A stretch of DNA of 64,000 bases from Candidatus Iainarchaeum sp. (GCA_018304465.1 JAGVWC010000011.1:1-64000), one strand, 5' to 3'; positions 40,908-61,967 are shown, numbered from the stretch's first letter. The notes: generated from the letters alone by a model not told the origin. Numbers and translations are program-made.

Positions 40908-40911
40908 GGGG

Positions 40912-42836: not shown

Positions 42837-42866
42837 CACTAAAAAACGAACATTTCTAACATTTGA

Positions 42867-43565
42867 ATGCGCGTATTCATTCTCTTCGACCTCGAAGGCG
42901 TTACCGGCTACGGTTGCACTAATATTTCGGGAAGCACCAAAGAATTCGCGTACTCCGACGTGAACGCGGCGATTCGCGGCGCCAAAAAAGGCGGTGCAAC
43001 GGACATTATCGTCGGCGACTGGCACGCCTACGGGGGCAATTTGAACCCGAAAAAACTAGTTCAGCCGGTTCGATTGGAACAATATGCCGATCGGTTCGAA
43101 ATCCAAAACCAGCAAATCGACCGGTGTTTTTTCCTCGGATGCCACGCCATGGCGGGAACTCCCAACACGGTGGATCCCCATACTGAAGAATATTACATTC
43201 AAAACGCTTTTGTGGATAATCAAAAAATCGGTGAAGTAGGCTTGATCGCATATTACTTTTCGGCAATGAAGATACCCGTGGTTTTGTTCGAAGGATCCGC
43301 CGAAGCAATGATGGAAGTTCGGGAAATCATGCCGGACGCGGTTTGCGTCGCGGTCAAAAGGGGATTTGAAAGTCTGTCGCCCGAAGAAAGCGCCAAACAA
43401 ATCGAGGACAGCGCCATGCTGGCGATACAAACAAAACCAAAACTCGTTTACCCGAAAAAACAAGAATTACGAGTCGAATTTACGGATGGAACGCAAAAAA
43501 CATATCGTGAAAAAAACTTCCAGCGGATTTATGATCAATTCACCATCGATCTGACCGAGACGTAA
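42867..43565 (+). CDS. M55 family D-aminopeptidase (DppA-like)
   Basis: DLEGVTG, DVNAAIRGA, GDWH, GCHAMAGT, HT, IGE. Confidence 0.88.
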   Translation: MRVFILFDLEGVTGYGCTNISGSTKEFAYSDVNAAIRGAKKGGATDIIVGDWHAYGGNLNPKKLVQPVRLEQYADRFEIQNQQIDRCFFLGCHAMAGTPNTVDPHTEEYYIQNAFVDNQKIGEVGLIAYYFSAMKIPVVLFEGSAEAMMEVREIMPDAVCVAVKRGFESLSPEESAKQIEDSAMLAIQTKPKLVYPKKQELRVEFTDGTQKTYREKNFQRIYDQFTIDLTET

Positions 43566-43577
43566 AAACCAAAAAAC

Positions 43578-44450: not shown

Positions 44451-45325
44451 TTCTGCAACTCCTTGTTGACGCCGAGGATTCCCTGCGGTCGAAACAATAA
44501 AAACGCGAACAGAATGACGAACGCGATCGCGTCTTTGTAACCCGACGGCAAATACCAGATTCCGAAATTCTCCGCGAATCCCAGCAAAAACGAACCCAGT
44601 ACCGATCCCGGAACCGAATTCACGCCGCCGATAATCGCACCCGTAAACCCCTTGATGATCAGGTTTGTTCCCATGGTTGGCTCGAGGTTTTGCTCAAGCC
44701 CCACCAGGATTCCGGCAACTCCCGCGATGGCGGACCCGATGGCAAAACTATAATCGAACATTTTTTGCGACGAAATCCCGACGACTTCCGCCATCTCGCG
44801 GTTATCCGACACCGCGCGCAACGCCTTGCCGGTTTTGGTGAATTTCATAAACCAAAACAGGCCCCCCAACAATACAAGCGATGTTACCACGATGACAATT
44901 TGAAGCGGCGTGATAATCGCTCCGGCAATTTCAAGGCCTTTTGAAACCGGAATAAAATCAATGGTCTTGACTTCCGCGCCGAATACCAACAAGAGAACGG
45001 ATTCAAATAGAATCAACAATGCAAAACTTCCCAACAGCAGGATTACCGAACTGGCTTTGCGATGGCGAAGCGGCGCATACACGAACCGGTTCAGCAAAAT
45101 GCCGAGCAACGCCGAAAAAGCCACCGTCAACAAGACGGAAAGAAAAAAATCAAGATGAAACGTTGAAAACAAAACGAATAAAAAATACGCCGACACCGCG
45201 ACGGTTCCGCCATGCGCAAAATGCACGAAGCGATTGGTGGAATAAATCAGCGAAAAACCGCTGGCGACCAAGGCGTAAATCGCGCCCGCGATCAAACCAT
45301 TCACCAGCAGTTGCGTGAAAACCAT
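44447..45325 (-). CDS. livH: Liv-type ABC permease, LivH-like
   Basis: QLLVNGLIAGAIYAL, HFAHG, GKALRAVSDN. Confidence 0.92.
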   Translation of the reverse strand: MVFTQLLVNGLIAGAIYALVASGFSLIYSTNRFVHFAHGGTVAVSAYFLFVLFSTFHLDFFLSVLLTVAFSALLGILLNRFVYAPLRHRKASSVILLLGSFALLILFESVLLLVFGAEVKTIDFIPVSKGLEIAGAIITPLQIVIVVTSLVLLGGLFWFMKFTKTGKALRAVSDNREMAEVVGISSQKMFDYSFAIGSAIAGVAGILVGLEQNLEPTMGTNLIIKGFTGAIIGGVNSVPGSVLGSFLLGFAENFGIWYLPSGYKDAIAFVILFAFLLFRPQGILGVNKELQK

Positions 45326-45678: not shown

Positions 45679-47148
45679 TCACTTTTGGATCCGCGCCAAA
45701 CCATGATGCGCCCGCAAGTCGATTTTGTCGCCGTTTTGAATGATCTTGGTTCCCACTTTGGTGCCGACAATACACGGAATTCCAAGTTCCCGCGAAATAA
45801 TCGCGGCGTGACACGTGATCCCCCCGTCATCCGTAATGATTCCCACGGTTTTTTTTAGCATGGGAACGAATTCGGGAGACGTCATTCCCGTGACCAGAAT
45901 CTCGCCTGGTTGCAATTGTCCCAAATCCCGCGCGGATCGAATCACCCGTGCGATTCCGGAAACGGTTCCCGGTGATGCGCATAACCCCGCGACTTCGTTT
46001 TGCGTTACCACGCTTTTTTGCCACAATTTTTCCTCGGCCAAAACCGCTTCTTTTCCCGTCAGCACTTGAAACGGATAAACATTGTAATTTACAAAACAAT
46101 GTTCTCGACGCGCTTCTAATGTTTGTCGGGAAATTTTTCCTTGTGCAAAATCGGTCAATTCGAAAGAAAAAAGATATTTGGCCACATCCGAATCGATTCC
46201 GCGTCTACGCGCGAGTTCTTTAAGCAATCGTCCCACTGAAAAAAATCCTTTCATCTGGGTTTTTTTTCGATCGTCGTACAGGATCGAAACTTTTTTTGCC
46301 AACTCGAAAAAAAACAGGGCTTTGGAGGAAAAAAGGTATTTTGAAATCAACCGATTTTGTTCGGCTTGCGATTCTTTTTTTTGTTTTTCAATCGCACGAA
46401 GTCTTTCGGTCGGATTTTCTTTTGCATTCAAAGCGGATTCGATCAGTGATTCCAGATTATTCCAACCCAATCCCGAAAAAGAAAAGTAATTACAAGGCGT
46501 CCAATAAAATTTTTCGAGATGCGCTTCCATCAACGGTCTGATTTGCGCGTCTTTTCGCCAATTCTTATTTGGGGTTTGTCGATTCGCGATGACCGCGCTG
46601 ATTTGAAGAACGCTTTTTTCCGCCGCGCGGGAAAAAGAATCGTCTGTGGGCATGGAAAGCGCGGAAATAATCGTCGAAATTTCTTTCGATGGGATTTTTT
46701 GCGCGGAAAGATCCTCGGAGAGAAGTCCCGGAAGCGAAAAATCAATCAACTCGCCAAACGGTCCGAGATCCCACAACGGCTGGTAAACATTGAAAAATTT
46801 TCGGATTGATTCGATAATTTCTTGCGTTGAAAGAAGACCCACACGTTTTGGCAGCAGGGAATCGCAATAATCCTCGTTCAATTTGCAAATATATCGGAAT
46901 AATTCGAAAAGCGAATTCGCGTATTGCGGGTTTTTTTCCAGTCGATCCGCCAACATCCGTCCCGCCGCAATCAATTCATCCTCGTCAAACAGCCAACGGA
47001 TCTCGTCGTGACTGCACGCGAGTTTGTTCAAGCCATAGCCTTTCGGAACAAACCGCCTAAGTCCGTGATCCAGGTCGTCTCCGATGTTAAGGGTGGAATG
47101 AAACGCGAAAAACAAAGCGCCTTGGCGGCGCTGCTCGATCAAACGCAT
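45679..47148 (-). CDS. Helical N-domain plus C-terminal PEP-utilising phospho-His swivel domain, paralogue 1
   Basis: GLCASPG...ILVTGMTSPEFVP...[21 protein letters not shown]. Confidence 0.88.
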   Translation of the reverse strand: MRLIEQRRQGALFFAFHSTLNIGDDLDHGLRRFVPKGYGLNKLACSHDEIRWLFDEDELIAAGRMLADRLEKNPQYANSLFELFRYICKLNEDYCDSLLPKRVGLLSTQEIIESIRKFFNVYQPLWDLGPFGELIDFSLPGLLSEDLSAQKIPSKEISTIISALSMPTDDSFSRAAEKSVLQISAVIANRQTPNKNWRKDAQIRPLMEAHLEKFYWTPCNYFSFSGLGWNNLESLIESALNAKENPTERLRAIEKQKKESQAEQNRLISKYLFSSKALFFFELAKKVSILYDDRKKTQMKGFFSVGRLLKELARRRGIDSDVAKYLFSFELTDFAQGKISRQTLEARREHCFVNYNVYPFQVLTGKEAVLAEEKLWQKSVVTQNEVAGLCASPGTVSGIARVIRSARDLGQLQPGEILVTGMTSPEFVPMLKKTVGIITDDGGITCHAAIISRELGIPCIVGTKVGTKIIQNGDKIDLRAHHGLARIQK

Positions 47149-47350
47149 AGGTAGTTATGTCGCATTAGTATTAAAATATTTTGCATTTACTGCAAAATTT
47201 ATATTTGTTGATTGTGGGACTTTAAACGGCGAACAACGCCTTTTCGAGCATGGGAAGCGAATAGTCCCTCGAAAACGCCGGTTCCAGTCGAGGCATCAGT
47301 TTTCCCTTTTCTATTATAAGAAGAATCAGTATTAAAGCATTGGGAGCACG

Positions 47351-48391
47351 ATGCGATCCGAACAATGGATAAAATACTTGGCGGGAAACCAAAGCATGTT
47401 CCTTTGCACGTTACTTGGAAAAGTGTTCACGCAAACGCTCAAAACCGAATTCGGAGCCGGACCCAAACGAATCCGTTTTTTCTTTCACACAGGATTGACC
47501 ACGGGCTTTGTGGTCCAAAAAGAAATGATTTCATTCGGAAAACTCTTGTCCCGAAAAATCGAAAAAAATCCGCGCCAAATAACCCGATGGACGCGGCAAT
47601 TATCCCGACAAATCGATTTCTTGCGAAAACAACTGCTGTCATTCCACGGGAAAAGAATGACTAAGGCGGAATTTGAAAAAATTTGCCTTGAAACCGAACA
47701 ATTCTACGCGCATCTCGTGCCCGTGATGCAAGTCGCGGATTACTTGCCGTCATCCACCCTGAAAAAAATGCTTCCAAAACTCGAAAAAGCCCGAAAATAT
47801 TCGGAATCGGTTCAAAGCGAAATCGAAGGGTTTTTCGAGCACTGGGCTGAAAAAGAAAACAAATACAGTCACTTTCCCACGGCTTTTTTTTTGAGTCAAA
47901 CCGAAAAAGAACTCTTACAATATTTCAAAACTCATCGGTTTTTGTCCCGCTTGAAACTCGAACACCGGTGTTCTTGCAGCGCGCTGGATTTTTCCAACGG
48001 AAAATACGTATTGTTTCCCAAAACCTACGCCGAAAAACTCGAAGAAAAAACACGTTTATCTCGATCCGACTCGTTTGTCATCGGACAAACCGCTTACCCG
48101 GGAAAAGTCATCGGAACCTGCCGACGCGTACTCCATCCCGCGGACTCCACCCGCTTTGACGAAGGGGATATTTTGGTCACGCAAATGACCAAACCCGAAT
48201 ACTTGCCGATGATTCGAAAAGCAGGCGCGATCGTGACCGACGCCGGCGGATTATTGTCGCACGCCGGAATCATTTGCCGAGAACTCAAAAAACCATCCGT
48301 CATCGGAACCGACAAAGCCACCTTGGTGTTTAAAACCGGCGAAAAACTGCACGTGGACGCGACCAAAGGAATCGTTCGAAAAATTTTATGA
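47351..48391 (+). CDS. Phospho-His swivel domain protein, paralogue 2 (shorter N-domain)
   Basis: GQTAYPG...ILVTQMTKPEY...TDAGGLLSHAGIICRELKKP. Confidence 0.88.
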   Translation: MRSEQWIKYLAGNQSMFLCTLLGKVFTQTLKTEFGAGPKRIRFFFHTGLTTGFVVQKEMISFGKLLSRKIEKNPRQITRWTRQLSRQIDFLRKQLLSFHGKRMTKAEFEKICLETEQFYAHLVPVMQVADYLPSSTLKKMLPKLEKARKYSESVQSEIEGFFEHWAEKENKYSHFPTAFFLSQTEKELLQYFKTHRFLSRLKLEHRCSCSALDFSNGKYVLFPKTYAEKLEEKTRLSRSDSFVIGQTAYPGKVIGTCRRVLHPADSTRFDEGDILVTQMTKPEYLPMIRKAGAIVTDAGGLLSHAGIICRELKKPSVIGTDKATLVFKTGEKLHVDATKGIVRKIL

Positions 48392-49858
48392 AAAAATACG
48401 GACGATTCCGTGATTTGTACGAAGCTCGATGAGCGTACCGTCCTTAATCACTTGGGTTGCAATCCGAGTGCCGATAATGCACGGAATATTAAGCTCGCGG
48501 CTAATAATGGCCGCGTGACTCGTGATTCCTCCTTCGTTGGTCACTATTCCACGGGCTTTTTTCATTAATGGCACAAACTCTGGGCGCGTCATGCTTGTCA
48601 CTAATATTTCTCCTTCATTGAAAGGGTCCGATGGTTTTTTGACGACCCGGGCAATTCCTTTGGCTTCACCGGCGCAAGCAGTAATACCTTGCAGAGACTG
48701 AATGTTTTCCAAATTAGCTTTGGGCATTAGACGTTCCCGCAATTGCTCGTAGACGCTTCCGCTCAGGGTCCAGAATCGTTGGTCCTTATTGCCAATCTGA
48801 ACGCAACCTTTCATGCGCTGACGCCATTCTTCGATTGGAACACTTTTGCCGTCCAGCAGGTCTAATAGTTCGGAAGGAGTTGTGAATTGCAGGATCTCAA
48901 ATTTAATACCTGTTTTTTCACTCGTTTTATGCAAGAAGAGATTGAGATAATGGCACGCGATAAGTGTCGCACGTTTGCGTTGATCATGCCAATATCCGAT
49001 CAATGAAATCCAATGGAGAAGCTTTTGAGAATCTGGATCGAGTTTTAAATTCAGTTCCTCGCGTTTTTGCTTAAGCATTTTTTCCTGATGCAAAAGAGCA
49101 AAAATTTCTTTTTCTATTTCTTCGATTGTTCGTTTAGATTCGATTCGGGCATTTTCGAAAAAAACGGTTAATTGAATCGGTTCGGTATATTTGTAATTGT
49201 TTTGAATCCAAAAAAAATTCTTTTGATGCTCAACTACTAAACGGTAAATTGAGGGATTTTCTTTCTGCAGCTCTTGAAGCGTTTTGGGATTACTGCTCTT
49301 AAGCTGCCGAGCGATCAGTAACAGGCTCAATTTTTCTTCGCCCAAAAACGTCCCGTACATGGGTGCCATGGCTTCTCGAATTTGTGTCTGTAGTAAAGGG
49401 TATTTTTCGAGCAAAAGTGAAACCATATATTCTGTGCCGGTATAGAAATATTCGACCAATAATGAGGGGGTGAACAGCGACAGGTATACATCCGTGAATT
49501 CTTCATAGTCTTTTTTCAGGTCCGTTATTGCACGCGAAGAAAAACTGTTCACATACGCATAATATTCTTTTTGGCGTTTTTGCCACAAAGCATACATGCG
49601 CTCCAGAATTGAATAATCCGCCAAAATGCGCTTGTATTGCCTTTCGGCAAAATGCTCCGGCAGTATCCAGTCGCTCTCGTCCCCATTTTTCGAGTAAAAT
49701 GTTGTATATATTTCAAATCCAAATCCAGGACAAATCTTCTCGAGTTCGAAACTGGCTCCTGCAATCGAAAAATAGTTCAGATGTGGCACAATTGTGGCTG
49801 AATACACGCCCCACTTCTCTGAAGGTGAGATTAATTCCCAAAATGAATCATCAGTCAA
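48386..49858 (-). CDS. Phospho-His swivel domain protein, paralogue 3
   Basis: [13 protein letters not shown]...[21 protein letters not shown]. Confidence 0.88.
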   Translation of the reverse strand: MTDDSFWELISPSEKWGVYSATIVPHLNYFSIAGASFELEKICPGFGFEIYTTFYSKNGDESDWILPEHFAERQYKRILADYSILERMYALWQKRQKEYYAYVNSFSSRAITDLKKDYEEFTDVYLSLFTPSLLVEYFYTGTEYMVSLLLEKYPLLQTQIREAMAPMYGTFLGEEKLSLLLIARQLKSSNPKTLQELQKENPSIYRLVVEHQKNFFWIQNNYKYTEPIQLTVFFENARIESKRTIEEIEKEIFALLHQEKMLKQKREELNLKLDPDSQKLLHWISLIGYWHDQRKRATLIACHYLNLFLHKTSEKTGIKFEILQFTTPSELLDLLDGKSVPIEEWRQRMKGCVQIGNKDQRFWTLSGSVYEQLRERLMPKANLENIQSLQGITACAGEAKGIARVVKKPSDPFNEGEILVTSMTRPEFVPLMKKARGIVTNEGGITSHAAIISRELNIPCIIGTRIATQVIKDGTLIELRTNHGIVRIFS

Positions 49859-49868
49859 GGAATCCCCG

Positions 49869-50828
49869 TCATTTCAAAGTCGTAATCGGCCGCGCCTGCA
49901 AAATATACACTTTATCATCAATGGCCCATTCGATATCCATGGGCTGACCGTAATGCGATTCGATATTCAAGGCTTCCTTGGCCAGCGCTTTCCACTCCGA
50001 ATCCGACAACGCCGCGGAATTCGCTTCTTCTTCCCCGATCTCGATTTCCTTGTTTTGCCCGAATTCGTCCCGAATAATCGCGATTCGCTTTCCACCGATA
50101 GTATGCGATACCACGGACAAATCTTTTTTCTTTAGAATCAAGGTATCCGGGGTTACCATTCCGGAAACAACGCTTTCACCCAAACCAAACGCGGCTTCGA
50201 TAATCATTTCGTCGCGCGCGTTCGTCACCGGATTCGCAGTGAATAAGACGCCCGCTTTTTTGGAATTCACCATTTCCTGGATTACGACCGAAATCAACAC
50301 CATTTCGTGCTTGAAACCTTTGGATTCGCGGTAAAAAATCGCGCGCGGAGAATACAACGACGCCCAGCACTTCTTGACCGCTTCCAAAATGCCGTCATCG
50401 CCTTTCACGTTCAAAAAAGTGGCTTGCTGTCCGGCAAAACTCGCGTCCGGCAAGTCTTCCGCCGTCGCGCTGGATCGCACCGCAACGAATCCTTTTCCAA
50501 GTTTTTTGTAATCCGCCAAAATGTCATCGCAAATTGATTGGGGGATTTGCGCGTTTAGGATCAGCAATTCGATCTGGTTGGCGGTTTTTTCCAACTGCTC
50601 GGAATCATCCACGTTCGTCTTGTTCAGCAAATCATGAATTTTCTTATGAATCTTGTTTTCATCCACGAACTGCTTAAAGACGTGAATCGTAATGCAAAAA
50701 CCATTCGGAATCGGAAACTTCGAAAACATTTCCCCCAGGTTTGCGCCTTTTCCGCCAACCAACGGAATATCTTTTTTTTTGATTTCCGAAAACCACGCGA
50801 TGTTTTTTTCTAAAGGCATATGATTCAT
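49869..50828 (-). CDS. Standalone PEP synthase/PPDK N-terminal ATP-grasp domain protein
   Basis: VGGKGANLGE, VAVRSSATAEDLPDASFAGQQ, GLGESVVSG, DIEWA, LQARPIT, then stop. No His domain and no PEP/pyruvate barrel. Confidence 0.92.
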   Translation of the reverse strand: MNHMPLEKNIAWFSEIKKKDIPLVGGKGANLGEMFSKFPIPNGFCITIHVFKQFVDENKIHKKIHDLLNKTNVDDSEQLEKTANQIELLILNAQIPQSICDDILADYKKLGKGFVAVRSSATAEDLPDASFAGQQATFLNVKGDDGILEAVKKCWASLYSPRAIFYRESKGFKHEMVLISVVIQEMVNSKKAGVLFTANPVTNARDEMIIEAAFGLGESVVSGMVTPDTLILKKKDLSVVSHTIGGKRIAIIRDEFGQNKEIEIGEEEANSAALSDSEWKALAKEALNIESHYGQPMDIEWAIDDKVYILQARPITTLK

Positions 50829-50937
50829 ATCATCCTTTTCCCATTTAAATAGTAACGAAAAACGGTTTCGGCCGTTATGAAGCGGGATACCTTTAAATAT
50901 CAAAAAGTAAGTAGGTCTTCATTGGAGGCATTTTTTC

Positions 50938-51834
50938 ATGGCACCACGACCATTGCTTGGAAGATTCGGAAAAAAACCCGGGAAAACAGGTTCGCCGAAA
51001 ACACCTGAACAGTCCAGTCAATCCGGTGTTGCAGCAAAATATGTTGGAAAGATTCCTGTCGGAACCGTTCGAAGCTATTTGGGCCGGCATCAAATAAAAC
51101 AAAAAGGCACTCCAACAGGTTTATCTCCCGAAGGAGAAGGCCGTGCAAGTGAAGCGCTTTTGCCTGGATTAAAAAGCGGACGCCAATATCGGGTCACTAC
51201 TTCCACGAATGATCGCGCCTTCCATACCGGTCGATTGGGTGCGGAAGCGTACCGACGCCTCGGGGGACGCGCCAACACCGGGGCCGTGCTAAATGACCGT
51301 CGAGTGGCAAAACGCGTCGATCACATCGTCAAAGGCAAGCCAACGCGTGGACGCGTCCTTAAATCCATGAGCGCGGATCATGTTTTACCCGAACCTCAAC
51401 TCACGGAATACATGAACATCATCGAAGAACTGAAAGCTCAAGACAAACGACTAAATGACACCACTGCCGAGGAAAAACTCCTCGTAGATTGGGCTATGCA
51501 TGGAAAATACGCGCGTCGCATCGGAGATCCGATCAAAATCACTGATAATATCATCCTGGATACATTGCAGCTGGGAAAAGAAGTCAGCAAGCGCGGCGGG
51601 CAAAACATCGAACTGCGAAACGTGTCTCACAGCGGTTTCGTTGAAATGGTTTTCATGCGTTTAACCGGACGAGATTACCGTGAAACCGGAAAAGGCATGG
51701 TTGAACCCGGAGAAGGACTTCTCGTTCATTTTCTTCCCGAAGGAAAAGCCGTGCTTGAATATCGCGACAAACAATTCGACGTAACCAAAAAATTAAACCA
51801 GATCATTAAGAGCGCCCGCAGCAAGTATCGCTAA
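50938..51834 (+). CDS. Histidine-phosphatase-superfamily-like protein with basic leader
   Basis: YLGRHQ (RHG-like), LSPEG, TSTNDRAFHTG, NVSHSG. Confidence 0.6.
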   Translation: MAPRPLLGRFGKKPGKTGSPKTPEQSSQSGVAAKYVGKIPVGTVRSYLGRHQIKQKGTPTGLSPEGEGRASEALLPGLKSGRQYRVTTSTNDRAFHTGRLGAEAYRRLGGRANTGAVLNDRRVAKRVDHIVKGKPTRGRVLKSMSADHVLPEPQLTEYMNIIEELKAQDKRLNDTTAEEKLLVDWAMHGKYARRIGDPIKITDNIILDTLQLGKEVSKRGGQNIELRNVSHSGFVEMVFMRLTGRDYRETGKGMVEPGEGLLVHFLPEGKAVLEYRDKQFDVTKKLNQIIKSARSKYR

Positions 51835-51860
51835 CGGCACTCCTTTTTTTTTATTTTTTA

Positions 51861-52271
51861 TTAATTATTGTCCCTACTCCGTAACTCATATATTTTTTGG
51901 AGAATATTATCCAAATGCTCATGCACCAATGTCTGATCTCGCACAATCGCTTTTACACTTTCCGGAACTACAAATCCTTTTCGAACATCGCTTCGCAATG
52001 CCTTTTGGAACGCAAGGGTCATGTCTTCTATTCGACTACGGGCATTTTCTAGATATCGAATAGCAGGATCTTTTTTTTTCCACTCTGTCGGAATCGATGA
52101 AGAATGAAGACGCCGGAGAATCTCAGCCTCAATAACACGCATATTCCGTTGGATTTCTTGCATTGGATAATCTCGTTCGACCGCGCTATGAACCCGCGTC
52201 ATAATTTCTCTTCGCCTGTCAGCTACCTTTTCACGCAACTGAGGTCGACGCATCGGTTTTCTGGACTTCAT
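51861..52271 (-). CDS. Hypothetical basic helical protein
   Basis: 136-aa Arg-rich ORF starting MKSRKPMRRP; no family recognised. Confidence 0.55.
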   Translation of the reverse strand: MKSRKPMRRPQLREKVADRRREIMTRVHSAVERDYPMQEIQRNMRVIEAEILRRLHSSSIPTEWKKKDPAIRYLENARSRIEDMTLAFQKALRSDVRKGFVVPESVKAIVRDQTLVHEHLDNILQKIYELRSRDNN

Positions 52272-52324
52272 TTAACCACCGGTGTATTTTAGGTTTATAA
52301 TCTTACTTGTCTCCAACAACACCT

Positions 52325-53740
52325 TTATTTCTTTTCGATGACTGTTATAGAACCGTGATTCGCTTTTACTTGAACGATCCAACCATCTTTAAGCACCCGC
52401 GTCGCGTTTTTGGTGCCGATCACGCACGGAATTCCCAATTCGCGGGAAATGATTGCCGCGTGACTCGTAATTCCCCCTTCATCGGTTACAATCGCAATCG
52501 CTTTTTTCATCGCCGGAACAAATTCTGGTCTTGTCATGCTGGTCACCAAAACCTCGCCTTCTTTTAATTCCGCGATGGAATCCAGCGTCCGAAGAATCCG
52601 AACGGGCCCCGTGGCGATTCCCAAGGAAGCGCAGGTTCCGTTTAATACCTCCACTTCGTCCAAACGGGTTTTAAACCGTTGTTGATACTCCAAAAAATCC
52701 GAATGATCAAAAATCATTACGCCTTGGGAATGCTCGATTCCGATGAACCCTTTTTTTCGCCTTTGGCCCAAGGATTCGAGTTCACGGTTTTTCAATCCTT
52801 TTAGCGAAACTTCTTCGCCGGTCAGATACTGGATAGCCACCGGATCGACTCCAAACCGCCTCGCCAATTCGTTGACGATCAACTGGCAACCAAACACCCC
52901 GCGAAAAATGTTTTTCTTTCGCTCGTCCTGCCATTGCGTGACAAAATCCGTCCATTCCACCCATTGACGCTGCGCATCGGAAAAGCCGTACCGAGCCATT
53001 AACGCCTCTTTTTTGTGCCGAATCTCTGAAAGATCCGGTTTTGAAAACGATTCAAGCCCATCCGCCATTTTTTCCACATCGGACTCGGACAAAACCTCGC
53101 TTCCCGCATACGAGGTTTCCGACCAAAAAAAATCCTTCAAAAACCGCTGAATCAACGCTTTTTTTTCCTTGGCGCCTGCGTTTTTGATTTGCCAGAGCAA
53201 TTCTTCTTTTTGAGATACAAAGGAGTGCGACAAGGGTGTTGTGAGAGCGGAAAAATCCTCATTTGACTGTGTGCCGGTGACGCCCTTGAAGAGTTCGTGG
53301 CGCATTCGATGCTCTAACGCCAAGGCCAGACTTTCGATCACATGCGATGATCCGACGGTTACTCCGCGGCTAACCCAATGACGCTTGGAAAGATCTATCA
53401 ACGCGTCATCAGGTAATTTGGTCAAATCGCTTTCCGCCGCCGCAAAAACGGGTTCTTGATCCGCGACTTGCCGGTCGTAAACGCGCCGAAGCGCCTGCAA
53501 ATACGATGGGTCCTTTTTCAATTCGGAAAAAATCCGATTCGCAATCGCATCCAAATCTTTTTGCGGGTACTTCCATTCACAATAATCCTCTTCATACGTG
53601 GCCAAAATCGCATGGTAGGAATACCCCATGGTTTTTTGCATGACCGGCAATCCACCCACCCCAATCATGAAAATCGGGCGTCCCGGACAGCTTTGGGTAT
53701 ACCATTCTTGGGACAAATATTTTTTCAGTACCGGGTTCAT
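52325..53740 (-). CDS. Phospho-His swivel domain protein, paralogue 4
   Basis: GTCASLG...[10 protein letters not shown]...[21 protein letters not shown]. Confidence 0.88.
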   Translation of the reverse strand: MNPVLKKYLSQEWYTQSCPGRPIFMIGVGGLPVMQKTMGYSYHAILATYEEDYCEWKYPQKDLDAIANRIFSELKKDPSYLQALRRVYDRQVADQEPVFAAAESDLTKLPDDALIDLSKRHWVSRGVTVGSSHVIESLALALEHRMRHELFKGVTGTQSNEDFSALTTPLSHSFVSQKEELLWQIKNAGAKEKKALIQRFLKDFFWSETSYAGSEVLSESDVEKMADGLESFSKPDLSEIRHKKEALMARYGFSDAQRQWVEWTDFVTQWQDERKKNIFRGVFGCQLIVNELARRFGVDPVAIQYLTGEEVSLKGLKNRELESLGQRRKKGFIGIEHSQGVMIFDHSDFLEYQQRFKTRLDEVEVLNGTCASLGIATGPVRILRTLDSIAELKEGEVLVTSMTRPEFVPAMKKAIAIVTDEGGITSHAAIISRELGIPCVIGTKNATRVLKDGWIVQVKANHGSITVIEKK

Positions 53741-53928
53741 ACAAATTCCCTTTTCTCGATCACGTTGGAGTTATTTTCGTCGGCGATCATGGCTACGACT
53801 TTTCTCTGAATCCGATATTCTGCCATGAGAGATACCTGTCTTTCCCGCTGCATATAACGTCATACGAGTTACCCTTCGGTCTTTTCGGTTCTGATTCTGC
53901 CAAAGGTTGAACGAGGTCGTCTAGGCAT
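53737..53928 (-). pseudogene. Possible degraded small basic-leader gene
   Basis: The frame reads [61 protein letters not shown] and overlaps both neighbours. Confidence 0.3.
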
Positions 53929-55360
53929 TGAATTTACCCCTTTTCTCCAATACCACGATTTGTCCGTGATTCGCTTTTACTTGAACGATCCAACCATCTT
54001 TAAGAACTTTAGTAGCGCTCTTGGTCCCGATCACACAAGGTATTCCGAGTTCTCTTGAAACAATGGCCGCATGGCTTGTGATCCCGCCTTCGTCAGTGAC
54101 GATCGCAACGGCTTTTCGCATCGCAGGAACGAATTCCGGTCGCGTCATCGATGTAACCAATACTTCGCCGTCTTTCATCGAACCAATCGACGACACCGTG
54201 GTGAGTACCCGAACCGGTCCTGTCGCAGTTCCCAAAGACGCGCATTGCCCATAAAGCGTTTCCAGATCATCATGCTTGGAATGAAATTGCTGGTCAAAAA
54301 ACTCGGCATCGGCTTGGTCCAGGAACGTCGTTTGGTTGCCCAGTTTCACATAAAGACATTTTTTTTGGCGTTTTTTTGATTTTTTCTGAAGAGAACCGTT
54401 TCGAATCGATTGAAGAGAAATTTCCCAGGGCAACACGTAATCCAGATCTCTTTTCGGAATCGAATACCTGCGTGCCAACTCGTCTTGGAATTTGGCAAGC
54501 AAGCACACACCTCTTAAAATTTCCCGTTTTCGCTGATCCTGCCAATCCGTCAAAAAATCAATCCATTCGACGATATTTCGTTGCTTAACCGAAAAATCCA
54601 GTTTCGTCATGACCTTGGTTTTTTCGGTTTGAATTTTTTTCGCATCCGGTGTTTTTACTTCGGGAATTTTTTCGGCGGTGGACAAAATCTCTTCTTTGGT
54701 CCATTGTTTGGGACCCGCGTATCCTCCGTCCGCCCAGAAAAACGTCTTCAGAAACCGGTCTACCCGCTCCGAACGCTTTTTTCCCTTGGAGATCCGAATG
54801 TCAAACAACGCTTGGTCTCGCAGCAAGGCAAAAGAAGGTTTGGTGGGGGTTGTCAGATTCACAAAATAAAGATTCACGTTTTCCGGAACGGTTTTTTCTT
54901 TGATGCCGTGTCGCAAATCGCGCTCAAGACGGATTGAGATGCTCTCGATTAAATGCGCAATTCCGATCACGGCATTGATATGGCGGCCCACGAACTCCAA
55001 CCGATCGAATAATTCTTCTTCGGAAAATTTTGACAAGTCTTTTTCAAGCAGGCCATTCGAAAAAAACCATCTCACTTCGGCAGCCCATTTTTTTCTTTGT
55101 TTTTCCAGGTATTTCGGATCCTTTGTCAGTTCTTTTTCGATCCGATCGGAATTGCGCTCGAGGTCAGCTAATCCATAATTGGCTTCCACGTAATCAATTT
55201 TGAAAAAAAAGAAGAAATCGGTATAGGTGAACCCCAGACCGTTTTTCATGTGATCGAACGGCTCTTCAATGTATCCGAACGGAACGATGAAAAACGGTTT
55301 TCCTGGAGTGGCCCCGGTGTACCACTTACGTGCCAGCATGCGATTAATGATTGGATTCAA
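53921..55360 (-). CDS. Phospho-His swivel domain protein, paralogue 5
   Basis: TTG start overlaps the upstream TGA and gives MNPIIN, matching the MNP- starts of paralogues 4 and 7; [21 protein letters not shown]. Confidence 0.87.
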
Positions 55361-56832
55361 CGATCGTCCCCCACCTTGCGGATAATTCCGTGATTCGCGT
55401 TCACTTCGATCAAATCGCCCGTCTGAATCGCCTTGGTGGCGTTTCCCGTGCCGATAACACACGGTTTTCCGAGTTCTCGCGAAATAATCGCGGCGTGACA
55501 CGTGATCCCTCCCAGTTCGGTAACGATCGCGCCCGCTTTTTTCATCGCGGGAACAAATTCAACCGAAGTCATCGTCGTGATCAATACTTCGCCGGCTTTG
55601 AAAAGAGAAATTTCCCTCGAATTTAAGAGCACCCGCGCGCGACCAACAAAAATCCCCGGTGACGCCGCGGTTCCTTTCATCACCTGATGCTCAAAATCTG
55701 TTTTTTTCGATATTTTTTTTTCAAGATCCGCGATTTCGCTTTCCGAAAGAAAACGATACGCTCCGTTTTCCACAATAAACGCGCTTTTTTCGATTCGCTT
55801 GGACAACTCCGCGGCTTTCGGCCCGTCTCCGCGAATAATGTTTTGCAGTTCCGAAACCGTCGCGTAATGCAGTTCCCGTTCAGAAATGTTTCGCCGCTTT
55901 CCGATTTCTTCAAGCAAACGGCCAAATCCGACATTCGCGATCGAAATCCGCTCTTTTTTCAAGTCGCCATACAAAAAAGCGATTTGCCGGATATTTTCAA
56001 AAAGAATCTCCAATTCAAGCGGAAGATTCGTCCGATTTTGGATTTCGCGCAGCCGTTTCGACGCGTTTTCCTCCAGATGCTCAAAGTCAAAAATCCGTTT
56101 TTTTCGCTCCGAAACCGGAATCGCCTGCAAGCAGTCCAATTCTTCGTGCACCATTTTTTCGTCCAGAATGGGGCCGTAGTAATCATAGGTTAGAAAATAA
56201 AACCGTTTGGCGTGAAGCCGAATCGCTTCTTTTTTTCGATCCTCTTCTTTGATCAACGAAATCGCCAAAAGGCTTTCTTCGGCGCGCGCGACAAAACTTT
56301 TATGAACCGGGTTGGCCAAGACCGAAAAAATTTCCGCGATTTCCGATTTCTTGAAATTCTTGTTTTCTTTGGCCAAAAAAACGGCTAAACGGTCCTGTAC
56401 CAACTGGTGTCCGCGAATCTCCAGCGAAAAATTCGCGGGTTCCGTCCAATACTCGGACTCGATGTAAATCCGAACTGCTTCGTTGAAAAGCGTTTCCAAA
56501 TCCGCGTCCGAAAAATTTTCCAAGCGTTCATTCAATACCGCGGGATCGATCAGTTCCAGCAATTGTTTTGCGTTTCGTAAAAAGTTGTTGCGCAACGGCT
56601 CAATGATTCCTCTTTGATGGGACAATCGCTCGACAACTGCGTTGGCCACGGTTTCCATTTGGTCCGGCAGCCAATACCACGTGCTCTGCCCGTTTTCAAT
56701 CAAACAAAAAAAACCCGAAAACGCCATGGGGACGCCAAGCGAACGATCCATCGTCTGGTTGTAGGATGACGCCATGACTCCCGTTGGAAAAGGCGGCGCG
56801 GAACTCGAATACACTTTGACAAGATTCTCCAT
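55357..56832 (-). CDS. Phospho-His swivel domain protein, paralogue 6
   Basis: GTAASPG...[10 protein letters not shown]...[21 protein letters not shown]. Confidence 0.88.
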
Positions 56833-56834
56833 GA

Positions 56835-58292
56835 CTAGTTCGCCTTAACCTTGCGCACGTACCCGTGATTCGCGTTGACCTCAACCAAGTCCCCGTCTTG
56901 AAAAGTTTTGGTCGCGACTTGCGTTCCGATGATGCATGGAATTCCCAGTTCGCGGCTTACGATCGCGGCGTGGCTGGTGATGCCGCCTTCGTCGGTCACG
57001 ATTGCGGAGGCTTTTTTCATCAAGGGGACGAATTCGGGTCTTGTCATTCCCGTCATCAAAACGTCGCCTTCGCGAAACTTCGAAAACGCGTTGATGTTAA
57101 GAATAATCTTCGCGGGTCCCGTTGCTTTTCCAAGCGACGCCACGGCGCCATACACGGTTTCTTGCCCCGAAAACGACCGCTCGATCCGATCGAACAATTC
57201 GGCGGCTTGGTTGGTTTCCACCAAATAATCGCCGGGTTGATCGAGCTCGATCAGCCAAACGCCTTGTTTCACCCGCATTTTCAAGGTCTCCAAAAGGTTT
57301 GGATCGCCTTCGACAAAGGCTTTGTATTCCAAAAAAGGAATCACGAAATCGCTTTCAAACATCGGGATGCCTTTTTTTTCGGCAATGCCGTGAAAAAAAC
57401 CAATGACCCCCCAATTGGCGATGTTGGTGAATTTTTTGCGAACATCGCGAAAAAACGCCAGGTCCGCGAATTGCTGAATCCGCGCACGCGTTTGTTCGTC
57501 AAAACCGTATTTTTCAATAATCTTTTTTTTCTTGTCTTTCAATTCTTTCCAAAACGCGTTTTGGTGTTTTTCGGATAGCCGGGCAAAGAAAAAATCTTCT
57601 CCAAGCACCGTTGCGGTCTGGTAATTGTTTTCGATCCACCAGAAATTTTTCTGATGCGCCGAAAGCATTTCCGAAACTGCGTCCGAAAGTTGCTTTCCGT
57701 CTTTTTCAAATTGCTGCTGGATTTTTTCAAACGATTTTTGTTCTTCCCACAAAAAAGTCGTGTCCGGCAACAGCAAGGTCTGCAGATCCGCCGCGCTCAC
57801 TTCGGACAACCGATTTCCGAAGATGTACTTTAGAATTTCTTTTTCGAACGGATCGAACAAATCAATGAAAAGCGAACACGCCCAGCGTTTGAATTCCTGA
57901 TCGAGAAATTTTCCGAATTCGTCCACGCATTTTTGCTGGGTTTTTTCGGAAAAATTCTTTCCAAGTTCAGCGACTCCAAAAGACCGTTCTTCCAGTCCTT
58001 TCCCAAACCCGTTGTGACGCTTGAGTTGTTGTTTTACCCACGAAGGGTTTTTGGTCATTTTTTCCAGCAACTGCAGTACCAGTCGCTTGCCATGGTCAAT
58101 GGGCCAATACATGAACGCGGATTGGATCGGGCTTACGTATACCGCTGTGTTAAGCAGCCAGATTCCGTCCGAAAGATCCGAATACCTAGGCAAAGACAAG
58201 GTGGCTGCCGGCAGCATGATCGTAATGGTCAACGAAGGCGCGCTTTGCTTGTAGTAGGAACGGCGGGCGATTTTCTCCAATTCAGGATTCAT
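56835..58292 (-). CDS. Phospho-His swivel domain protein, paralogue 7
   Basis: GAVASLG...[10 protein letters not shown]...[21 protein letters not shown]. Confidence 0.88.
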   Translation of the reverse strand: MNPELEKIARRSYYKQSAPSLTITIMLPAATLSLPRYSDLSDGIWLLNTAVYVSPIQSAFMYWPIDHGKRLVLQLLEKMTKNPSWVKQQLKRHNGFGKGLEERSFGVAELGKNFSEKTQQKCVDEFGKFLDQEFKRWACSLFIDLFDPFEKEILKYIFGNRLSEVSAADLQTLLLPDTTFLWEEQKSFEKIQQQFEKDGKQLSDAVSEMLSAHQKNFWWIENNYQTATVLGEDFFFARLSEKHQNAFWKELKDKKKKIIEKYGFDEQTRARIQQFADLAFFRDVRKKFTNIANWGVIGFFHGIAEKKGIPMFESDFVIPFLEYKAFVEGDPNLLETLKMRVKQGVWLIELDQPGDYLVETNQAAELFDRIERSFSGQETVYGAVASLGKATGPAKIILNINAFSKFREGDVLMTGMTRPEFVPLMKKASAIVTDEGGITSHAAIVSRELGIPCIIGTQVATKTFQDGDLVEVNANHGYVRKVKAN

Positions 58293-58323
58293 TTGGTTCA
58301 CTATCAAGCAATCCGTTTTGAAT

Positions 58324-58983
58324 TTATATTTCTATTTCCTGCCCCGGTTTTAAGGGTTTGCATGCGATTCCCAATTTTTCAAGCCGGGATTTGAAATCGT
58401 TTTCGTCCGCATTAATCATCGGAAACGTATTGAAATGAATCGGAATCACGAGTTTTGGAGAAAGCGCTTGGGCCGCATGAACGGCTTCTTCGATTCCCAT
58501 GGTGAAACGATCGCCGATCGGCAAAAAAGCGACATCGATCGAAAAACGCTCGCCGAGATTTTTCATTCCGGAAAAAAACGAGGTGTCGCCGGCGTGATAC
58601 ACGGTTTTCCCGTTTTTTCGCAGGATGAAACCCGACGGATTGCTCGACGCCGAGTGAAAGGCCTTGGTCATGAAAATCGACCAGTCTTTGACCGAAATCT
58701 GGCCGCCCACGTTCATCATCTCGACTTTGGTTCCTTTGGCGGCGTATTGTACCGCCAGCTCAAAACCCGTAACAACCGTTGCGTCGTTTTCTTTCGCGAG
58801 CGCTTCCGCGCCCAAATGATGATCGAGGTGATCATGGCTGATGCAAATCAGGTTTGTTTTGCGGTCCGCAGCAGTGAAGACATGCGAATTCTTAAGTCCC
58901 ATTCCCGGCATTTCGTCGGTCCACGGATCCACGATCAAATCGTCTATTTTGACACTGGCGTGGCCCAGATATTTGAGTAACAC
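58324..58983 (-). CDS. Metallo-beta-lactamase-fold hydrolase (UPF0173-like)
   Basis: YLGHASV, VDPW, SHDHLDH, YHAGDT, LPIGDRFTMG, IPIHFNTF; GTG start. Confidence 0.9.
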   Translation of the reverse strand: MLLKYLGHASVKIDDLIVDPWTDEMPGMGLKNSHVFTAADRKTNLICISHDHLDHHLGAEALAKENDATVVTGFELAVQYAAKGTKVEMMNVGGQISVKDWSIFMTKAFHSASSNPSGFILRKNGKTVYHAGDTSFFSGMKNLGERFSIDVAFLPIGDRFTMGIEEAVHAAQALSPKLVIPIHFNTFPMINADENDFKSRLEKLGIACKPLKPGQEIEI

Positions 58984-59099
58984 TGAAATTCCCCCATTCA
59001 CCCGACTGCGGGCTATACAGATATCCGCGCCCAAGGAATAAAAGACTGGTCCGCTATATGACGGAATTGGATGCGGGTGACGCGTCCCTCTGAACCTCC

Positions 59100-61967
59100 T
59101 CACTTATTATGTATATAATCCATCGTCGCCCGATATTTTGGCGCGTCCGAAATCGGCTGATCCTGATATTCCAACAGGCCCCAAGAACCATATTTGGTTG
59201 GGAAATAAACGTTCTCAAACATCACCATCAAGCCACCGCCATTCGCAAACCACACACTAAAATATTCCTGGTATTGCGTATACATTCTCGCGTCCTCGTT
59301 GGCGGCAATCAGTTTGTCAGTCAGAGTCTGGTTGTTGAGGTAAGTAAAATTGGCCGGGACCAAACTCTGGCCGCCTTGATCAGCAATTAAAGCCAGATTA
59401 TATCTGTCAGCGACCTGCTTATTGGCGATGATCCACGACGTAACCTCCCCAGTAATTGAAGCTTCGGCGCGGTCTAATATTTCAGGGACCGTAATGGTCG
59501 AAATTTCGTTGTTTTTGCCAATTTGATCAGCCACGGCTGCGCCAAAATAAGGCGCGATCGATAAAGCGTCGGCCGAAATATTGTATGGATTAATCGTCGG
59601 ATTATAAAATGATTTAAGAATAAATGTGGCCACGTAACTATTTCCGGCTTGGCTCGCCAACACCTTGACGAGCCGAGAGTCACCGCCAAATTCGTCCTCG
59701 AATATTTTAAATATCTCGGCTGACCGCTTCGCTTGGTAAACCAGTCCCGACGCCCAGATATCGCCAGCATCACTAACACCGTCGGTGCAATTATTATCCA
59801 GATGTAAGGAACAGCCCATTCGATCAACGTAAGCAGTCTGGTAGAAAACCGTATTCCATAATTCCGTCGAATATTCGATGTATATTTTTCGATCGGGGTT
59901 TAGCTGTTCATGAATCATGTTGGCTAAATTTTTCACATAATTGTCATCGGCCATCGCGGGAATGTTTACCCACATGTCGGCATTAAGCAAGTTGGAAATA
60001 CTAATCAGGTCTTCCATCGCCGCTCCGGTCGACATTTTTATGGTAAAGTCTCCATTCGAGGCTTCGTTAAACGAAGTCTCACTATACAACGGAGGACGAA
60101 CCAAATTATTATAGTCAAAATTAAACGTATAATCGTCAATCACTTGAACCATCAGATTCGAAAGGTTAAAAGACTTAGCAATCGTCTCCCCCGAAGCGTC
60201 CTTCAAAGTCGTGGAAGCATCAGATCCAGAAATCGTAACGAGTTGTCCCGTAATCAGATGGTGCGGCGAAAGCGTTTTCACCTGCGCGGTATAATTCGAG
60301 GCAAAAAAAGATTTATCTAGAACCTTTTTTATCGAACTGATTGGACCGGTTCGAATAATCAGTTTATTTTGCGTATAATACCCTGGTTTTGTCCGGTCTT
60401 CCCAACGAGCCATGTTGGTATTAACGGTCAACATCGCGTCCACATATCGAATAACCGAAAATCCGTTCAATCGTTGCAAGAAAGTCGGATAGAACACATT
60501 TTGACTGTAATTATTTTCAAATCCTGGCAGAATCATCCGAATATTTCGCACATGATTTGCAGGATTTGACCGAGTAATCTGTAGGTGGATTCCTCCGTTC
60601 GTCGGAGTAACGTTGAGAAGAATTTTCCCCGGCGTTGATGAAATTACTTCGGTATCGCCAATAAACTTCAAGTCCCCGTCTCCATCATAAAAAACCGTAT
60701 AGGTGCCGGCAGGATATTTTCCTTTGATTGAATCAAAAAGCAAAGTCTCGACAACCGTCGGATACGCCTCACCTGGAACTTGATACGGCAGTTCCAAAGG
60801 ATACCCCGCCTCATCCGAAGGCAGTTCCGCTTCCAGACCGGTATCCCAAATGGTCCAATCGATCAGGCGGGTTTGGGTATTCCATTTTCGGGTAATCCAT
60901 GGTCTAGTCAACTTGAAAACGTTCGTATAGGGTATTTGTCCATCATAATCATTAAACCACGCCAGATTATTTCCGATTAATTTGTTGTTACCTATACAAC
61001 CTAAACTGTTCAAGTCTTGACAATTTGCTTGGCAGGTTAATGTTCCTCCTGTATACCCTTTGGTTTGGCAGGTTTGCCCGTTCAAATCGGTTTTGTCACA
61101 AACTTCGGACCCTTCGCGCAAACCATTCCCGCAAGTTTGAGTCAAAGTGGATCCACAAGCAGAAAAGTTGAAATCCGTACAATTAGAAAGGCAAAAAAGA
61201 ACTCCAGATGAAAACCCCTTGGAAATACACGTTTGATTATTCAAGTCCGATCCGTCGCAGGTTTCGGTTCCTTCTCGTAGATTGTTGCCGCAGGTTTGAA
61301 CCAAAGTTACTGGACAAACACCACAATCGGTTGGACAACTGGAACAAGTTTCGGTCGCGTTACAGGAACCGTCGCCGCAAACCTGAGTCGAAGAGTCGGG
61401 GGGTAATGGGTCTTGGCCGTCATCCGATCCATCGCCGCTTTCGAACGTACAATCGTTTGGGCAGTTAAACGGCGTTTCCCGCAAATCGCAATTTCCGTTG
61501 TTATTGCATACCCCCGCACAATCGCTTGGACACGATGAAACGGTTTCGCCGATGAGAACATTGCAAAAACCATCTGTCACACATCGGCCGGTTGAAGCCG
61601 GACAATCCTTTTTACACGAAACCGAATTCTCGCCGATGTCGGGTTCACAAGAACCGTTTTCATTGCACGCAAAACAATCCACCAAACACGTATTCGCGGA
61701 TTCGCCGGGTTCACACACTTTGTTTCCGCAACGCGGAATAGAAAAATTTGTTCCCGGATTCGACGTAACGACATTCGAAATTCGGTCCGCAATCTTATTG
61801 ATATCTCCCGCATTATCCATTGCCGACCCGACGCGATCCGGTCCGACCAACGGCGAAACAAAAACCAAGAAAAAAATACTCGAACCAAGCCCTACAAAAA
61901 CAATGAATGTAAGTATTTGGTTCAAAGACAATTTTGTAAGTGCCGGAAAAAGACTTCCAAACCCCAT
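59100..61967 (-). CDS. Large membrane-anchored surface protein with Cys-rich repeats and a putative glycan-binding/glycosidase-like domain
   Basis: N-terminal transmembrane helix; repeats CGN..CE.GE....C..DC and CGN.LREG.E.CD..DLN.QTC; C-terminal YDGDG, NHVRNIR, DMWVNIP, YIEYSTELWN, IAPYFG, GSWGLLEY. Confidence 0.8.
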   Translation of the reverse strand: MGFGSLFPALTKLSLNQILTFIVFVGLGSSIFFLVFVSPLVGPDRVGSAMDNAGDINKIADRISNVVTSNPGTNFSIPRCGNKVCEPGESANTCLVDCFACNENGSCEPDIGENSVSCKKDCPASTGRCVTDGFCNVLIGETVSSCPSDCAGVCNNNGNCDLRETPFNCPNDCTFESGDGSDDGQDPLPPDSSTQVCGDGSCNATETCSSCPTDCGVCPVTLVQTCGNNLREGTETCDGSDLNNQTCISKGFSSGVLFCLSNCTDFNFSACGSTLTQTCGNGLREGSEVCDKTDLNGQTCQTKGYTGGTLTCQANCQDLNSLGCIGNNKLIGNNLAWFNDYDGQIPYTNVFKLTRPWITRKWNTQTRLIDWTIWDTGLEAELPSDEAGYPLELPYQVPGEAYPTVVETLLFDSIKGKYPAGTYTVFYDGDGDLKFIGDTEVISSTPGKILLNVTPTNGGIHLQITRSNPANHVRNIRMILPGFENNYSQNVFYPTFLQRLNGFSVIRYVDAMLTVNTNMARWEDRTKPGYYTQNKLIIRTGPISSIKKVLDKSFFASNYTAQVKTLSPHHLITGQLVTISGSDASTTLKDASGETIAKSFNLSNLMVQVIDDYTFNFDYNNLVRPPLYSETSFNEASNGDFTIKMSTGAAMEDLISISNLLNADMWVNIPAMADDNYVKNLANMIHEQLNPDRKIYIEYSTELWNTVFYQTAYVDRMGCSLHLDNNCTDGVSDAGDIWASGLVYQAKRSAEIFKIFEDEFGGDSRLVKVLASQAGNSYVATFILKSFYNPTINPYNISADALSIAPYFGAAVADQIGKNNEISTITVPEILDRAEASITGEVTSWIIANKQVADRYNLALIADQGGQSLVPANFTYLNNQTLTDKLIAANEDARMYTQYQEYFSVWFANGGGLMVMFENVYFPTKYGSWGLLEYQDQPISDAPKYRATMDYIHNK

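Follow-up and report, generated by a model that had tools for sequence, protein, structure and literature searches.

HpeHI of Rhodococcus, CreHI of Corynebacterium, the phenylphosphate synthase PpsAB of Thauera and AcvAB of Sphingobium are dikinases whose ATP-grasp and swivel histidine subunits are encoded by separate genes. In the sections of the reports on which we draw, these enzymes are split homologs of rifampin phosphotransferase (RPH) that occur as 1:1 pairs and phosphorylate phenolic compounds in bacterial catabolism (PMC12167813; PMC12624787), and HpeHI, CreHI and PpsAB are described as working via a transient complex (PMC12167813). Here we report on a 64,000-nucleotide stretch of DNA from Candidatus Iainarchaeum sp. 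(GCA_018304465.1 JAGVWC010000011.1:1-64000, referred to below as the window), in which a cluster at 45679-58307 of contig C7 comprises seven open reading frames (ORFs) with a swivel domain and one stand-alone ATP-grasp gene (C numbers denote contigs, and L, G and P numbers the loci, genomes and proteins of our comparison set). We assign a probability of roughly 0.65 to the reading of this cluster as a split dikinase of the RPH kind, ATP-dependent and one-to-many, in which several modules, each an acceptor domain joined to a swivel, would share one charging protein.

As far as the reports in question describe them, the known two-component dikinases and the Iainarchaeum cluster have in common an ATP-grasp subunit of ~320-340 aa and, as a separate gene, a subunit composed of an RPH-like acceptor domain and a C-terminal swivel with its His, and neither includes a phosphoenolpyruvate (PEP)/pyruvate barrel. 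The ratio of grasp to modules is 1:7 in the archaeal cluster and 1:10 in its genome, as compared to 1:1 in the bacterial aromatic-catabolism operons, and the neighbors in the window are an ATP-binding cassette (ABC) importer, TrmB regulators and hydrolases rather than the genes of such an operon. The acceptor domain is also shorter here (~240-390 aa) and has no sequence match to the models of those enzymes, the carriers are taxa of the candidate phyla radiation (CPR) and of the DPANN archaea, and multi-module fusions exist. The PRK08296 models NF006149-NF006153, which we take to stand for the PpsA/HpeH-type subunit, match the last ~100-130 residues only, with 42-101 bits against cut-offs of 578-730. 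Furthermore, the residue two positions before the swivel His (His-2) is Thr or Leu here and, in the portion of the HpeH report cited, Met in HpeH (PMC12167813).

The remaining described relatives are single chains. RPH-Lm (5FBS, 5FBT, 5FBU, 5HV1) has ~865 aa and 16-18% identity to the modules, and nothing suggests an antibiotic substrate here; the RPH models NF041857 and NF000283 give 301 bits to the grasp and 58-87 bits to the modules, as compared to a cut-off of 999. The prodiginine ligases PigC, HapC and RedH share the RPH-type three-domain plan, with NCBIfam matches to the grasp (272 bits) as well as to the swivels, but they are single-chain proteins of pigment clusters in which phosphorylation drives a condensation, and no such cluster occurs here. 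PEP synthase (PpsA) and PPDK provide the closest grasp and swivel sequences and keep Thr at His-2, but where the modules have their RPH-like acceptor domain these enzymes have the PEP/pyruvate TIM barrel (PF02896). The best NCBIfam match of the grasp is indeed the PpsA model NF005057, at 398 bits under a cut-off of 598, with the swivels at 100-138 bits; no window gene is one chain above the cut-off of TIGR01418 or NF005057, by which a PEP synthase would be recognized. The phosphotransferase system (PTS), in which enzyme I serves many sugar-specific enzymes II, resembles the cluster in logic only, with one phosphoryl donor bearing a swivel His and many specificity components, and it uses PEP, HPr and membrane permeases, none of which is part of the Iainarchaeum system. 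The cluster thus stands outside PpsA, RPH proper and the PRK08296 group and fits a wider RPH-type superfamily. Split RPH homologs are already known; of the one-to-many layout in CPR and DPANN organisms, or of multi-module arrays there, we found no description in a literature search that lay outside subscription journals and supplements.

Results

The module genes

In all seven ORFs the C-terminal ~100 residues form a PEP-utilizers swivel domain (PF00391; E 2.8e-21 to 4.4e-25 by Pfam), and the catalytic motif GG[IL][TL][SC]HA is intact in each (GGITSHA in four, GGITCHA in two, GGLLSHA in one, by a regular-expression search of all ORFs of the genome). Six of the proteins are long (471-491 aa), and in the alignment their N-terminal domains (N-domains) share the motifs F[FYW][WF]....Y and D.[RK]K, both of which are absent from the seventh, a 346-aa protein that also carries the GGLLSHA variant. 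These features, seven swivels with an intact His and six N-domains with the two motifs, had been read from the DNA alone in the original prediction, and all were recovered. Residues F204, Y211, D272 and K275 are invariant across the N-domain alignment, and pairwise identity between N-domains within the genome is 18-31%. All seven frames are open, with their motifs intact.

Module 1 (45679..47148, minus strand, 489 aa; GGITCHA, His447) consists of an RPH-like acceptor domain and a swivel and matches PF00391 at E 7e-22 and the hidden Markov model (HMM) of the family N-domain at 6.7e-123. Module 2 (47351..48391, plus strand, 346 aa; GGLLSHA, His304; PF00391 E 2.8e-21) is the short type, with a reduced acceptor domain before its swivel. 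Module 3 (48386..49858, minus strand, 490 aa; GGITSHA; PF00391 E 2.7e-24, N-domain HMM 5.2e-127) shares its strand with the grasp gene and follows it after 10 nt. The grasp ORF itself (49869..50903, minus strand), with a likely ATG start at 50828 that gives 319 aa, holds PPDK_N only (PF01326, E 9.3e-111). Module 4 (52325..53740, minus strand, 471 aa; GGITSHA, His427) is the long protein that was modeled, and module 5 (53921..55360, minus strand, 479 aa; GGITSHA; PF00391 E 1.1e-24) is 42% identical to it; the start of module 5, within the ORF 53921-55501, is most likely the TTG at 55360, a codon that overlaps the upstream stop as TTGA. Module 6 (55357..56832, minus strand, 491 aa; GGITCHA; PF00391 E 3.2e-23) has the motif variants FYF....Y and DLKK, and module 7 (56835..58307, minus strand, 490 aa; GGITSHA; PF00391 E 4.4e-25) has a possible ATG start at 58292. 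Modules 7, 6 and 5 (58307 to 53921) are tightly packed, with a 2-nt gap or an overlap between genes.

The acceptor domain

The N-domains match no Pfam or NCBIfam family, and their profile finds a single chance-level match (E 0.1) among PDB sequences. Their proposed kinship with the substrate domain of RPH was borne out by structure prediction. The AlphaFold (AF2) model of module 4, built with 112 aligned relatives, has a predicted local distance difference test (pLDDT) score of 95.3 and a predicted template modeling score of 0.92, and its best Foldseek matches are the RPH-Lm structures 5fbu, 5fbt and 5hv1 (E 1e-14 to 2.5e-13). By VIA, residues 4-469 of the model align with residues 321-867 of the 5fbt chain (Z 19.7, root-mean-square deviation 4.8, 404 residues aligned, 16% identity), and all other VIA matches are limited to the ~105-residue swivel. 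The module 2 model (pLDDT 89.8, 13 sequences) aligns over its residues 1-346 with residues 326-867 of the 5fbu chain (Z 19.2, root-mean-square deviation 5.5, 299 residues aligned). No solved structure other than RPH matches a module along its full length, an alignment that runs in RPH from the rifampin-binding domain to the swivel.

Comparison of short and long N-domains by hhalign is marginal (probability 51%, E 1.6e-4, 71 columns), and it is the predicted structures that settle the short module as a trimmed form of the long-module plan. Models were made for two of the seven modules, the other five being homologous to the modeled long one. Since the long and short models both align end to end with RPH, all seven modules are, by their predicted folds, RPH minus its ATP-grasp, with the separate grasp supplying the part that is lacking. 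The portion of the RPH literature used here places the phosphate-handling residues Arg666, Glu667 and Lys670 ~159 residues before His825 (PMC4844700). The conserved D-x-R-K of the modules lies ~153 residues before the swivel His; the match is by position only and is suggestive of possible phosphate-handling residues.

The stand-alone ATP-grasp

The grasp motifs GGK and VAVRSSATAED are invariant across 50 homologs and presumably correspond to Lys22 and Arg117 of RPH, to judge by the part of the RPH literature drawn on. The nearest relatives listed are likewise stand-alone proteins of ~311-316 aa with 50-85% identity, and those with a named source come from Woesearchaeota, Micrarchaeota and Nanoarchaeia. 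A complex prediction for the grasp and module 4 scored 0.01; run without controls, it speaks neither for nor against binding.

The assembly amounts to 1.25 Mb at 92% completeness, and its only PF02896 sites lie in an intact PpsA of 805 aa (contig C8, all three domains), to whose N-terminal domain the window grasp is 41% identical, and in an intact PPDK of 881 aa (contig C5). The observation that no PEP/pyruvate barrel is present was confirmed by the Pfam scan of the genome. The companion claim, of only one ATP-binding domain gene, stands for stand-alone grasps, of which the genome has one, and falls for grasp domains in general, as PpsA and PPDK bear their own.

One grasp and many modules in other genomes

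The locus scan, which took one genome per species (185,579 species) and a motif derived from five N-domains, yielded 75 loci of at most 17 kb each. An HMM scan of these found 25 grasp domains and 238 long modules, along with 37 other ORFs that have a swivel only. At least two long modules are present in 54 of the 75 loci and at least four in 30, and tandem arrays reach eight; grasp domains are absent from 51 loci, single in 23 and double in one. Where a locus has at least two family ORFs, these lie all on one strand in 57 of 60 cases. Of the 25 locus grasps, two are part of frames as long as PpsA, with which they group.

Nature has in several cases joined the grasp to its modules. The locus L012 has an uninterrupted frame of 2396 aa with a grasp and four swivels, and the three genes after it hold another four modules; a 1363-aa frame with a grasp and two swivels occurs in L019, whose genome belongs to the taxonomic family of the Iainarchaeum genome; and further uninterrupted fusions occur in L028 (1806 aa, grasp and three modules) and L079 (1681 aa). 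These fusions are the strongest sequence-level argument that one ATP site would serve several modules. We also searched five whole genomes (G061-G065) chosen for arrays with no grasp within 8 kb, each of which has 6-11 N-domain matches and one PpsA-length frame. A short grasp frame of 324-334 aa occurs once each in G061, G063 and G065, and G062 has one of 320 aa together with a 204-aa partial frame; in G064 the grasp frames besides the PpsA-length one are two partial frames at contig ends, of 260 and 266 aa. The original proposal of one shared activator for many modules gains support from these counts and from the fusions of a grasp with two to four modules, the trans-phosphorylation itself being a step that we still infer. 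Separately, in the one-contig genome G030 of the same order, a 678-aa grasp frame adjoins a single module in a 613-aa frame (C1:226744-229221), which may be an intermediate architecture.

Spread of the family and age of the paralogs

When 1.84 billion cluster representatives were searched exhaustively with the N-domain profile, 3,931 proteins matched at E <= 0.001, of which 465 reach E <= 1e-30, most matches being 470-520 aa long; a word-indexed search with the module 4 N-domain retrieved just four. Relatives are named "pyruvate, water dikinase", "PEP/pyruvate-binding domain-containing protein" or "hypothetical protein", much as automated mislabeling had been anticipated. A Pfam scan covered 41 of the best 150 profile matches, and 37 of the 41 have PF00391, six of them joining one PPDK_N to 2-6 swivels in chains of 1297-2648 aa. 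Other fusions among the 41 are to an N-terminal XRE-type helix-turn-helix (HTH_3) in two (P0028, P0042), a receiver in one (P0016), a C-terminal HAD hydrolase in one and PTA_PTB in one (P0011).

Among 61 genomes sampled from the same order, N-domain matches occur in 21 (7 of the 29 of best quality), and one genome has 13. By label, 22 of the 75 loci belong to named DPANN phyla (Woesearchaeota 12, Nanobdellota 5, Micrarchaeota 4, Iainarchaeota 1), 22 to named CPR phyla, nine to "Patescibacteria group" or "Parcubacteria group" and nine to unnamed archaea or bacteria. The remaining 13 are automated bins called "uncultured Methanosarcinales" (eight) or "uncultured Gammaproteobacteria" (five), namely L045, L050-L053, L057, L058, L061, L076, L081, L088, L091 and L093. 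These labels look wrong: one of the genomes concerned, G064, has just 0.8 Mb, and the grasps of these bins group with CPR or DPANN ones.

In a paralog tree of 56 rows, made by a quick method with no bootstrap, starred clades unite module 1 with L009 (G038) and module 7 with L019 (G008), both from the same family, and modules 4 and 5 with L017 and L007. Because the window modules pair with orthologs of other genomes despite their 18-31% mutual identity, the module set is, on these sequence relationships, old and maintained, which fits distinct specificities better than recent drift.

Beyond the window the genome contains three more intact modules, at C6:150982-152550, at C13:166434-167555 and in the C15 frame 221423-222916, the last with a different N-domain and the motif GGNLSHA. 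A short-type module at C15:181588-182700 (L004:5589-6701, plus strand) is broken inside its swivel and is probably, from its sequence, a pseudogene. A stand-alone swivel of 109 aa with the motif GAMMSHP lies at C13:80318-80647 (L005:5822-6181, minus strand), flanked on the same strand by ORFs of 249 and 394 aa; the 394-aa ORF was considered as a module N-domain and proved unrelated on profile comparison. A search of this 92%-complete genome for the PSRP regulator (PF03618) found none. Eleven DNA runs, from groundwater or soil metagenomes, contain the stretch, and no RNA run is listed.

Neighboring genes

Between the grasp and module 4 lies a divergent ORF of the histidine-phosphatase superfamily (50938..51834, plus strand, 298 aa; RH ... 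SHSG), whose true start is probably later. It has no Pfam or NCBIfam match; its ESM Atlas feature score is 0.93, its structure has a template modeling score of 0.61-0.65 to His_Phos_1 clusters, and it aligns with array-embedded His_Phos_1 ORFs of the CPR loci L037 and L077, with R50, H51 and H231 invariant. An HMM of this ORF also matches in L034 and L009. A 136-aa ORF between the phosphatase-like gene and module 4 (51861..52271, minus strand) has no family match and may not be a gene. A possible accessory, a UPF0173-type metal-dependent hydrolase (58324..59103, minus strand; NF001911 208.7 bits, cut-off 144), precedes module 7 by 17 nt on its strand; the L064 array likewise encloses a Lactamase_B_2 gene, and the hydrolase link, at two loci, is weak.

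Raw Pfam counts, with no background control, for the 148 embedded ORFs of the 75 arrays give nine PTA_PTB, seven HAD, seven hexapeptide transferase, five TrmB, three HD, three NUDIX and two His_Phos_1 proteins, with PTA_PTB in 9 of the 75 arrays; the HAD, PTA_PTB and hexapeptide links are leads rather than shown associations. The presence of phosphatase-type genes beside modules suggests that the phosphorylated products would be intermediates that are processed further. A cassette of HAD, hexapeptide transferase, two genes of unknown type and PTA_PTB is common to the archaeal loci L033:3786-8315 and L059:4555-9036, and part of it recurs in L024:11750-14936.

Directly downstream of module 1, at 32308-45325, lies a Liv-type ABC importer on the minus strand, interleaved with four TrmB regulators on the plus strand. 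Five Peripla_BP_6 binding proteins (33019-34158, 34946-36106, 36918-38069, 38902-40065 and 40912-42015) accompany a single LivH/LivM permease pair and two ATPases, together with an M55 peptidase, and the layout is again one-to-many; no link of such an importer to the family was seen at the other loci. Elsewhere in the window are a phage-type integrase near its start (680-2038), two ORFs with weak Sigma70_r2 matches (2749-3333 and 3992-4570; E 5e-6 and 6e-8), a RelA/SpoT-type protein with HD_4, RelA_SpoT and TGS in this archaeal genome (6907-8598), and a 955-aa protein (59100-61967, minus strand) with an N-terminal membrane or signal segment, long cysteine-rich repeats and no Pfam family.

Discussion

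The analysis shows which domains the proteins have and what folds are predicted for them, that the catalytic motifs are intact and the gene order conserved, and that one grasp is naturally fused with several modules. For the working of the system we reason by analogy with the biochemistry of RPH, HpeHI and PpsAB, from which we infer the phosphotransfer steps, a transient contact of the subunits and small molecules as acceptors. On this model the single ATP-grasp protein would bind ATP, and the swivel His of any module would dock on it and take the beta-phosphate, converting ATP to AMP and Pi. The swivel would then swing back to the N-terminal acceptor-binding domain of its own module, where the His would phosphorylate the molecule bound. 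The acceptor domains differ from module to module and diverged long ago, so that a single charger would serve seven specificities in the cluster and ten in the genome.

Several observations weigh against this reading. A tree of 24 rows places the window grasp, together with two other grasps linked to arrays, among PpsA-length proteins in a starred set of six rows. A second starred clade, apart from it, comprises the remaining 18 array-linked grasps, one of them the fused grasp of the same taxonomic family. Because of this grouping with PpsA-length proteins, the dedication of the window grasp to its modules appears less certain than that of the 18 others, and chargers may have been recruited more than once. 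The genome G026 (91% complete) has one N-domain match and a single PPDK_N match, the latter in an 829-aa frame, and G004, G036 and G053 likewise show a module with no extra grasp detected; in such genomes the modules may be charged otherwise, or the grasp gene may be unassembled. The Thr at His-2 of the swivels is that of PEP synthase, as compared to the Met given for HpeH and its homologs in the cited part of that report (PMC12167813), and the window is without obvious pathway genes that would name a substrate. Finally, the family members fused to HTH_3 (2 of 41) or to a receiver (1 of 41) hint, by their domain content, at regulatory roles.

Such roles underlie an alternative that we consider unlikely, namely that the modules are regulatory or signaling phospho-His proteins whose N-domain senses a ligand and whose phospho-His is passed to, or controls, other proteins, in the manner of PTS enzyme I or of VadK. 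Besides the fusions just mentioned, it could draw on the TrmB regulators that adjoin archaeal arrays or lie within them (5 of the 148 embedded ORFs, and also at L001, L015 and L017), on the histidine-phosphatase-superfamily gene inside the cluster, and on the precedent of mycobacterial VadK, presented in the portion of the report cited as an autophosphorylating kinase that derives from PPDK and has enzymes as interaction partners (PMC13400623). However, the predicted N-domain fold is that of the small-molecule-binding rifampin-binding domain of RPH, ten deeply diverged paralogs are many for regulators in 1.25 Mb, and DNA-binding or receiver domains were present in only 3 of the 41 relatives.

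Alternatively, the modules might be independent of the stand-alone grasp, receiving their phosphate from the grasp domain within PpsA or PPDK, or doing no more than shuttle phosphate between metabolites. The swivels do score best on PEP-synthase models, the window grasp is of the PpsA-like type, G026, G004, G036 and G053 have modules with no extra grasp detected, and HpeH alone, in the section of its report cited here, moves phosphate from 4-phosphoacetophenone to acetovanillone (PMC12167813). We judge this independence to be quite improbable in view of the four uninterrupted frames in which a grasp is fused to several modules, the presence of a grasp within 8 kb in 24 of the 75 loci, inside or beside the arrays, and the conserved ATP-binding motifs. 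In addition, the position of the G061 grasp on contig C6 suggests that it lies just outside the L086 range, the contig match being unconfirmed.

A further possibility, to which we give slightly less credence still, is that the system runs mainly in reverse, with phosphate from energy-rich phospho-metabolites such as acyl phosphates remaking ATP from AMP, as PPDK does in some anaerobes. PTA_PTB proteins, which make acyl phosphates, are embedded in arrays as described and in P0011 are fused to the family, and the organisms are generally regarded as energy-poor fermenters. Against this, the 92%-complete Iainarchaeum genome has no PTA_PTB (PF01515), the grasp scores higher on PEP-synthase (water dikinase) than on PPDK models, and a rough thermodynamic estimate permits only very energy-rich donors. 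That the genes are mere PEP synthase fragments or pseudogenes, as the automated name "pyruvate, water dikinase" and the best HMM matches to PpsA models might imply, is scarcely credible given 3,931 cluster representatives, open frames and N-domains that are RPH-like and unrelated to any part of PpsA, and the specific case of a broken ppsA, foreseen as a pitfall, is ruled out because intact PpsA and PPDK lie on other contigs, with the window grasp 41% identical to that PpsA and its stand-alone relatives found in DPANN archaea.

Returning to the dikinase with one charger and many modules, we would also put forward, as a tentative extension that we hold well short of even odds, that CPR and DPANN organisms share a hub-and-spoke system in which one charger and changeable plug-in modules (up to about ten here, more in other genomes) might form a main part of the kinase repertoire with which scavenged metabolites are captured and activated, an ATP-driven cytoplasmic counterpart of the PTS. 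The linked phosphatase-type, transferase (hexapeptide-repeat and PTA_PTB) and regulator genes might then process the products. The giant fused forms pose a structural question of their own, with one ATP site and at least four swivels in one chain. If the one-to-many reading is correct, the family would also represent a natural modular toolkit for selective enzymatic phosphorylation, with one ATP module and exchangeable acceptor modules.

By the coordinates, ~15 kb (~1.2%) of the 1.25-Mb Iainarchaeum genome is spent on the module family, and relatives spend as much or more. The ultra-small CPR and DPANN organisms account for much of microbial diversity, and their acquisition of metabolites is poorly understood. 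A system of one charger and many modules would explain thousands of genes now labeled "hypothetical" or "PEP synthase", and would indicate which molecules these organisms capture.

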